64,000 nucleotides of DNA, from positions 12,364,867 through 12,428,866 of the forward strand of contig NC_052152.1 in assembly GCF_902713615.1 (NCBI RefSeq), written 5' to 3'. Shown one piece after another: positions 55,065-55,393 of this stretch (position 1 is the stretch's first letter; every line of letters begins with the position of its first letter). The notes beneath the pieces were generated by a model. The model was not told where the DNA came from and did not search any database. It saw nothing but the letters and a program-made list of their open reading frames with translations. The position numbers and the translations under genes were made by a program. Source of the DNA: Scyliorhinus canicula. Its lineage: Eukaryota.

Positions 55065-55393
55065 TTTAAGTGTCTTGTTTCAATTTTCGGGCATTTCCCT
55101 TTTAAGTGGGCGTGGTCAGGATTCTCAGACGTCATGACGTCACGCGTAGGAACGACTTGCACATGCGCAAATCGGCTTTCTTTCCTTGTGCGGTTCGGTG
55201 TCCATTGCGCATGCGCGGCTTGCGCATGCGCATGACGGTCCGCGACGAAGACTTTTTTTGACTGCGCATGCGCGGCTTGCGCATGCGCATAACGATCGGC
55301 ACCGCGATCTTTTGTAAACTGCGCATGCGCGACTTCCGGTTCCGGCGCATGCGCAGACGCGATTTGTAGTTCTTTGCTTACCATAGACTGCAA
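55058..55393 (-). CDS. AHAQ-repeat ORF overlapping gag and the downstream ORF
   Basis: 111 aa; seven AHA/AHV units encoded by GCGCATGCGC-type motifs, all in one frame. Confidence 0.45.
   Translation of the reverse strand: MQSMVSKELQIASAHAPEPEVAHAQFTKDRGADRYAHAQAAHAQSKKVFVADRHAHAQAAHAQWTPNRTRKESRFAHVQVVPTRDVMTSENPDHAHLKGKCPKIETRHLKW
55108..55355. promoter_or_regulatory. Internal CpG-rich NRF1/ETS/CRE/GC-box motif cluster
   Basis: Six exact GCGCATGCGC, ACTTCCGGT (55332-55340), TGACGTCA (55135-55142), GGGCGTGG (55108). Confidence 0.6.

Follow-up and report, generated by a model that had tools for sequence, protein, structure and literature searches.

Why should a retrotransposon carry, within the codons of its Gag protein, a dense set of motifs typical of CpG-island promoters, which are often bidirectional? 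The question is raised by a locus in a 64,000-nucleotide stretch of the catshark (Scyliorhinus canicula) genome, the whole of which we call the window. An earlier note on this DNA had described a cluster of NRF1, ETS, CREB/ATF and Sp/KLF motifs inside a retroelement coding region, and every motif that it named was indeed found, exact and where it had been placed. As far as sequence analysis can tell, the cluster is real, conserved in its lineage and dual-coded, and its function we infer. Namely, with a rough probability of 0.55, it is a nucleotide-conserved, gag-embedded, methylation-sensitive putative activator of the element's own LTR.

The cluster belongs to an LTR retrotransposon on the minus strand at 51709-56266, which is a young, high-copy, pol-less element of the Ty3/Gypsy type. 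Two TG..CA LTRs, a primer-binding site, a polypurine tract and a short target-site duplication are all present in the window copy, laid out as follows:

51704..51708, no strand: target-site duplication, left copy; 5 bp, identical to the bases at 56267-56271
51709..51964, minus strand: 3' LTR; 256 bp, TG..CA, a direct repeat with 1 base different from the 5' LTR
51965..51980, minus strand: polypurine tract, called from its sequence; a type common to the autonomous family
52365..55079, minus strand: tail of the family ORF, made of low-complexity tandem repeats; unit lengths 126, 45, 87, 63, 102 and 78 bp
55088..55108, minus strand: remnant of the Gag zinc knuckle, HLKGKCP; aligns with CHYCGSSHLKGQCP of the autonomous relatives, first two cysteines gone
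55620..55944, minus strand: Gag capsid N-terminal domain, Ty3/Gypsy type; 549 relatives at E<=0.001
55993..56010, minus strand: primer-binding site; starts TGGTAC and abuts the LTR, as in the autonomous family
56011..56266, minus strand: 5' LTR; TATA-like box near 56198, poly(A) signal near 56071
56267..56271, no strand: target-site duplication, right copy; matches the left copy

Long relatives of this Gag carry RT, RNase H and integrase in the Gypsy order, and tblastn gave no match to pol (PR-RT-RH-IN) in the window copy or in 59 full-length copies. Pfam returned no match for the repeat tail of the ORF and no Gag match for the Gag domain. A search with the cluster yielded 1793 candidate places in the genome, 40 of which were scored. 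Our copy set consists of 60 copies fetched among the 150 best Gag matches, the first 20 having been chosen for long open frames; 59 of the 60 have two LTRs, 47 with 0 or 1 LTR mismatch, the median length is 4448 bp, and a perfect 5-bp target-site duplication flanks 50 of the 59 full-length copies. Just internal to the 3' LTR, at 52042-52149, the window copy holds another copy of the polypurine tract and LTR edge, 82% similar. Elsewhere in the window, at 13177-15270, lies a fragment of a different Gypsy pol that covers RNase H and integrase, with an open stretch of 697 codons and no NRF1 decamer nearby.

Non-autonomous gag-only LTR elements such as the plant TR-GAG elements have LTRs, a primer-binding site, a polypurine tract and a gag-derived ORF, lack pol and are presumably moved by a helper. 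The window family shares the LTRs, both priming sites, the gag-derived ORF and the absence of pol, but differs in keeping the capsid N-terminal domain only, in its about 1000 aa of in-frame repeats and in its vertebrate host.

The motifs themselves, named after the factors or elements whose sites they resemble (NRF1, ETS, CRE, Sp/KLF, YY1), are these:

55207, 55222, 55264, 55279, 55321 and 55345 (span 55207..55354), no strand (palindrome): six exact NRF1-type sites, GCGCATGCGC, by sequence
55332-55339: ETS site ACTTCCGGT, by sequence, between the two most upstream NRF1 sites
55128..55142, no strand: doubled CRE, palindromic, reads DVMT; includes TGACGTCA at 55135
55108..55115, plus strand: Sp/KLF-type site GGGCGTGG, confined to the non-autonomous family
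55159..55168, no strand: seventh NRF1 site, with one mismatch here and exact in some copies; ancestral site 3
55405..55413, minus strand: YY1-type site CGCCATTTT, on the minus strand AAAATGGCG; reads KMA

The seventh NRF1 site, the doubling of the CRE and the YY1-type site are additional to what had been described before. With 35 CpG, a CpG o/e of 1.63 (0.50 in the whole window) and a GC content of 0.59, the cluster has the sequence features of a CpG-island promoter, that is, a length above 200 bp, GC above 50%, CpG o/e above 0.6 and NRF1/ETS/CRE/Sp/YY1 motifs. Among 5000 dinucleotide shuffles of 55100-55420, none contained at least three of the five motif types, which were picked post hoc, and the best result was two types (2/5000). 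The NRF1 decamer occurs 9 times in 164,893 flank bases, 3 times in unmasked repeats of the element and 6 times in other GC-rich repeats. That said, the six NRF1 sites are not independent, with tandem units of 57, 15 and 24 bp differing from copy to copy; they descend from about three ancestral sites through tandem duplication, and 58 of the 59 full-length copies have 3-10 NRF1 sites each.

Is the cluster truly coding? Read on the minus strand, the six NRF1 sites give AHAQ five times and AHAP once. The single frame is weak evidence alone, as the motif is palindromic and its copies are spaced by multiples of 3. Of 29 sister loci, which were chosen by the cluster, 25 have the repeat tail and all six AHA in a single ORF. 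The AHA frame is the true coding frame of the family, and the sister copies thus confirm the earlier claim that the motifs stand in frame within a retroelement coding region. The accompanying claim, that the cluster lies directly upstream of a long repeat ORF, holds for the window copy; that copy is, however, broken, and its sisters carry both parts in one ORF. In particular, two frameshifts, near 55391 and 55077, leave the AHA frame of the window copy as an island of 115 codons, and the tail of this copy has an in-frame stop at 53532-53534. Intact sister copies have an ORF of ~1100-1250 aa, with the Gag N-terminal domain in the first 110 residues followed by the repeat tail (about 1000 aa). 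It is an unusual family in which one ORF joins the capsid N-terminal domain only to in-frame tandem repeats of this length.

The frame is open from the Gag Met through the cluster in 41/58 full-length copies and at least 1000 aa long in 24/58, both counts being inflated by the way in which copies were picked. The cluster length is frame-preserving in 41 of the 44 sequences with both anchors (the window among them; 16 are without an anchor), and shared indels of at least 4 nt are multiples of 3 in 36/40 cases within the ORF vs 2/18 outside. Protein-level selection on the tail was considered and dropped, with a dN/dS of shared variants of 0.3-0.8, not different from that of private variants; for the Gag domain, the low dN/dS carries a bias from the choice of copies by Gag identity. 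An open frame is the sole clearly kept property of the ORF tail. The duplicated 102-bp unit of the tail also carries TCTCGCGAG (53164-53172 and 53266-53274), which we take to be 9/10 bases of the BANP/Kaiso-type CpG-island motif.

The same genome harbors a young family of intact Gag-Pol elements with a single 1412-1449 aa frame and near-identical LTRs (loci L161-L180), which have the LTR start, primer-binding site type, polypurine tract and 5-bp target-site duplication in common with the window family and are likely the helpers of the window element. Their capsid-to-CCHC linker contains three NRF1 sites, the first two of which flank an ETS site, together with a doubled CRE, and the AHA frame is as in the window family. 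The order NRF1-ETS-NRF1-NRF1-CRE directly before the CCHC knuckle was found in 10/10 autonomous Gag-Pol loci, with 2-3 exact NRF1 sites each, and at least one exact NRF1 site is present in 87/89 autonomous-clade copies. When the autonomous and window elements are compared by blastn, the linker module alone aligns besides the polypurine tract (68-77% over 58-130 nt), and agreement at four-fold sites between the two families is only 0.23-0.44. In the window family, the window element included, the capsid C-terminal domain is absent and the first cysteines of the knuckle are gone, but the module persists, with the HLKGKCP remnant behind it. In other words, the module is inherited from autonomous relatives and was multiplied in the pol-less derivative. 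Homolog searches produced no motif-bearing relative from another species (0/34, 3/605 and 1/1146 candidates), AHA[QHR], RMR and CACA were absent from all 150 Gag relatives listed, and the matches in the Atlas were generic Gag/zinc-knuckle clusters only. All of the evidence comes from one genome, and its subfamilies are related by shared ancestry.

Is it the peptide or the nucleotide sequence that has been kept? We addressed this question in 89 autonomous-clade copies, which form six groups of at least two (seven singletons were omitted), counting a site as diverged when net between-group divergence exceeded 0.1 and fixing the motif columns from one young copy, not from conservation. Conservation of the motifs beyond amino-acid constraint, which the earlier note had named as a check on its proposal, holds at silent positions across the six autonomous subfamilies. 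Namely, none of the 9 NRF1 third-codon positions has diverged, the doubled CRE shows zero divergence, and, for all motif third positions, 1/15 has diverged vs 104/228 non-CpG four-fold sites elsewhere (p=0.0025) and 17/39 CpG four-fold sites elsewhere (p=0.011); a second calculation agreed. In the young family, avoidance of the motifs by shared variants is slight (2/101 vs 11/208, p=0.23).

These data bear on the simplest alternative, that the AHA repeats matter to Gag as a peptide or that neutral CpG-rich sequence was multiplied by slippage. The whole tail is tandemly repeated, and since every part of it is, amplification alone is unremarkable; what is more, the motifs are also conserved at their first two codon positions. 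However, the synonymous positions are fixed too, including the CpG-forming GCG, which accounts for 9/93 among the other Ala codons of one autonomous ORF, and the residues flanking AHA are variable (S/Y/N/H/T/A/V/F before, H/R/Q/P after). The ETS octamer is encoded as P-G-S in autonomous and P-E-V in non-autonomous copies, and because it thus stands in different frames in the two families, selection appears to have acted on nucleotides and not on the AHA peptide. For these reasons, we consider a peptide or neutral origin very improbable.

The constraint is broader than the motifs. Other linker four-fold sites, outside the named motifs, are also conserved (4/31 diverged vs 121/267, p=0.0004), motif silent sites do not differ significantly from their nearest linker neighbours (p=1.0 and 0.56), and the first and second positions of the linker are more variable than elsewhere (32/115 vs 182/1223). 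The linker thus shows constraint at the nucleic-acid level over its whole length, and this alone does not tell a DNA from an RNA function: silent-site conservation beyond the motifs fits RNA structure as well as additional binding sites. Palindromic dimer signals exist in retroviruses and in Ty1 gag, and one can argue that here, too, the palindromes GCGCAUGCGC and GACGUCAUGACGUC dimerise genomic RNAs or form packaging stems, a signal that a non-autonomous element would need to keep. The earlier note does not mention such an RNA-level role. The NRF1 and CRE motifs are self-complementary, the palindromes were retained and multiplied in the pol-less family, the entire linker is silent-site constrained, and the region folds more stably than shuffled sequence (z=-2.1), but a fold score of this kind is expected from repeated palindromes. 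A consensus fold of 11 autonomous copies gave a covariation term of -0.31 kcal/mol, two-sided change in 1/48 pairs and partners that shift between runs, in a test limited by the fact that invariant palindromes yield no covariation signal. Moreover, the conserved features include the ETS site, which is not palindromic, and the pyrimidine that precedes each NRF1 motif (377/377 sites in non-autonomous copies).

Also against an RNA-level signal, the same motif set is held by a TIR-bounded element, whose motif grammar requires no RNA stage. This GC-rich, high-copy repeat lies at 58690-59455 of the window, has 12,513 candidate places in the genome (loci L242-L250 sampled) and carries ETS-NRF1-CRE-NRF1-ETS in its centre; exact or decayed NRF1 sites were present in 9/10 loci and a CRE-like site in 9/10. 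Taken together, we regard an RNA signal as unlikely. Descent of the gag cluster from the TIR element of the window was tried and rejected, the best blastn match being 18 nt of motif only. Similar NRF1 pairs were seen in other GC-rich repeats (loci L116, L120, L218, L228 and L233).

If the module works as DNA, it could still be a promoter in its own right, that is, an internal TATA-less promoter that starts a shorter sense RNA, like Ty1i, or an antisense RNA, like that of L1 ORF1. An in-frame Met inside the CRE, immediately ahead of the knuckle and of pol, would suit a shorter sense RNA, and the motif set is that of CpG-island promoters. Precedents for such promoters are described in PMC13709905 and PMC3985663. 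Against this stand the pol-less family, which amplified the cluster despite having no pol to express, and the RNA reads. The latter are a roughly 1-in-100 sample of one poly(A) single-cell run, pooled from many copies, and 2262 of them fall over 54330-56300. Sense depth, with the strand assigned by the usual library convention, drops from about 600 at the Gag domain, upstream of the cluster, to 47-106 within the cluster, with 0-28 on the other strand; the peaks sit upstream of A-rich tracts and are likely due to internal priming. Opposite-strand depth over 55122-55979 is 0-8, a figure biased by priming at A-rich tracts, and no pile of read starts or ends was seen in this poly(A) single-cell library, a type unable to show start sites. 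The reads show that transcription enters the cluster from upstream in the sense direction, and an internal start is compatible with them. Three contig runs of presumed RNA origin contain the stretch as well. Altogether, an internal promoter strikes us as quite unlikely.

Could the cluster at least keep inserted copies unmethylated? It had been suggested that the cluster spreads ready-made promoters, and this is not supported, as its CpGs decay like the rest of the element. In 59 older relatives, CpG decay amounts to 183/1540 (11.9%) in the cluster vs 486/4189 (11.6%) outside (p=0.78), with 31/345 (9.0%) of the NRF1 CpGs decayed (p=0.16) and protection at p<0.05 in a single one of the 59 copies. 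In 58 young copies, the per-base rate of rare CpG transitions was 0.0064 inside the cluster, compared with 0.004-0.011 for most of the other internal regions; for non-CpG sites it was about 0.001. Given this equality, and with CpG decay as the only proxy, inserted copies appear methylated in the germline, a few exceptions being possible; a protected, unmethylated island at inserted copies was rejected on this evidence.

Our preferred reading remains activation of the LTR that the element itself carries. Binding of NRF1, CREB/ATF and an ETS factor to the linker module would boost transcription from the 5' LTR, the presumed target, which lies about 0.8-1.1 kb upstream. The module would act in copies that are free of methylation, be it after a recent insertion or within demethylated germ cells or embryos; later methylation would turn it off. 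The disordered capsid-nucleocapsid stretch may be a place in the polyprotein that is tolerant of such peptides. The pol-less family multiplied the module in whole-codon steps, as would be expected if more RNA yields a freeloader more copies. We favor this reading because the LTRs are without the motifs (no NRF1, ETS, CRE or YY1 match in the 5' LTR of the window element, and none of the cluster motifs in the LTRs of the window element and 3 autonomous copies), because a pol-less family profits from full-length RNA and not from a pol promoter, and because conservation extends to a site that is not palindromic and the grammar recurs in a TIR element. The greatest depth of sense reads, upstream of the cluster, was counted for it as well.

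Comparable control of a retroelement is on record in mouse. PMC12420836 reports that NRF1 activates unmethylated IAPs in the germline, and PMC9729108 that CRE/CREB1 activates unmethylated IAPLTR1/1a copies. IAP, like the window element, is an LTR element whose NRF1 and CRE motifs are of the methylation-sensitive kind; the activity of unmethylated copies, reported for IAP, is predicted for the window element. However, the IAP sites tested there lie in the LTR promoter, whereas the catshark sites are gag codons of an element whose LTR is without them, and their binding is predicted. The Ty1i promoter in GAG (PMC13709905) is similar in that regulatory DNA overlaps the gag of an LTR retrotransposon; Ty1i is from a Copia element, its start has been mapped and its product is a restriction factor, whereas the catshark element is Gypsy, with vertebrate CpG-island motifs recognized from sequence. 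The mouse L1 ORF1 antisense promoter (PMC3985663) is a cis element within a structural-protein ORF, although of a non-LTR element with mapped antisense transcripts. In the part of PMC13486581 available, factor sites are treated in LTRs only. Literature searches on NRF1 motifs in Gypsy/LTR retrotransposons, sharks included, gave no direct match; those on GCGCATGCGC and transposons, judged by listing, gave nothing relevant, those on Scyliorhinus canicula Gypsy LTR retrotransposons nothing on this module, and those on NRF1/GABPA/YY1 methylation-sensitive internal retrotransposon sites no match. Both regulatory DNA within ORFs of retroelements and the control of LTR elements by NRF1/CREB have been described before; these literature searches turned up no case in which the two are combined in the Gag linker of a vertebrate Gypsy element.

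Gypsy elements in this genome can do without the NRF1 cluster, since none was found in the linker of 30 older sister-clade Gag loci (L211-L240). In 19/30 of these, the same capsid-knuckle linker carries YY1-type cores (2.8 per kb vs 0.13-0.26), which we treat as a lead, as they amount to two or three inherited sites with modest silent-site conservation. A wider picture, possible though doubtful, is that several unrelated kinds of catshark transposon imitate CpG-island promoters and that the Gypsy Gag linker is a swappable regulatory slot, holding NRF1/ETS/CRE sites in one clade vs YY1-type sites in its sister. The enhancer would then consist of codons and be absent from the LTR, an absence that keeps solo LTRs inert, and it would be tuned by whole-codon repeats, with 3-10 NRF1 sites per copy.

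What we have, then, is a retrotransposon lineage under selection for transcription factor motifs within gag codons. Its near-identical young copies, differing in their number of NRF1 sites, provide a natural dosage series. The decay of its CpGs argues that even the full motif set of a CpG island is no shield for a new insertion against germline methylation. Finally, the findings suggest that the awakening of unmethylated retroelements by NRF1 and CREB, so far shown in mouse LTRs, may also take place in cartilaginous fish, from a different position in the element.
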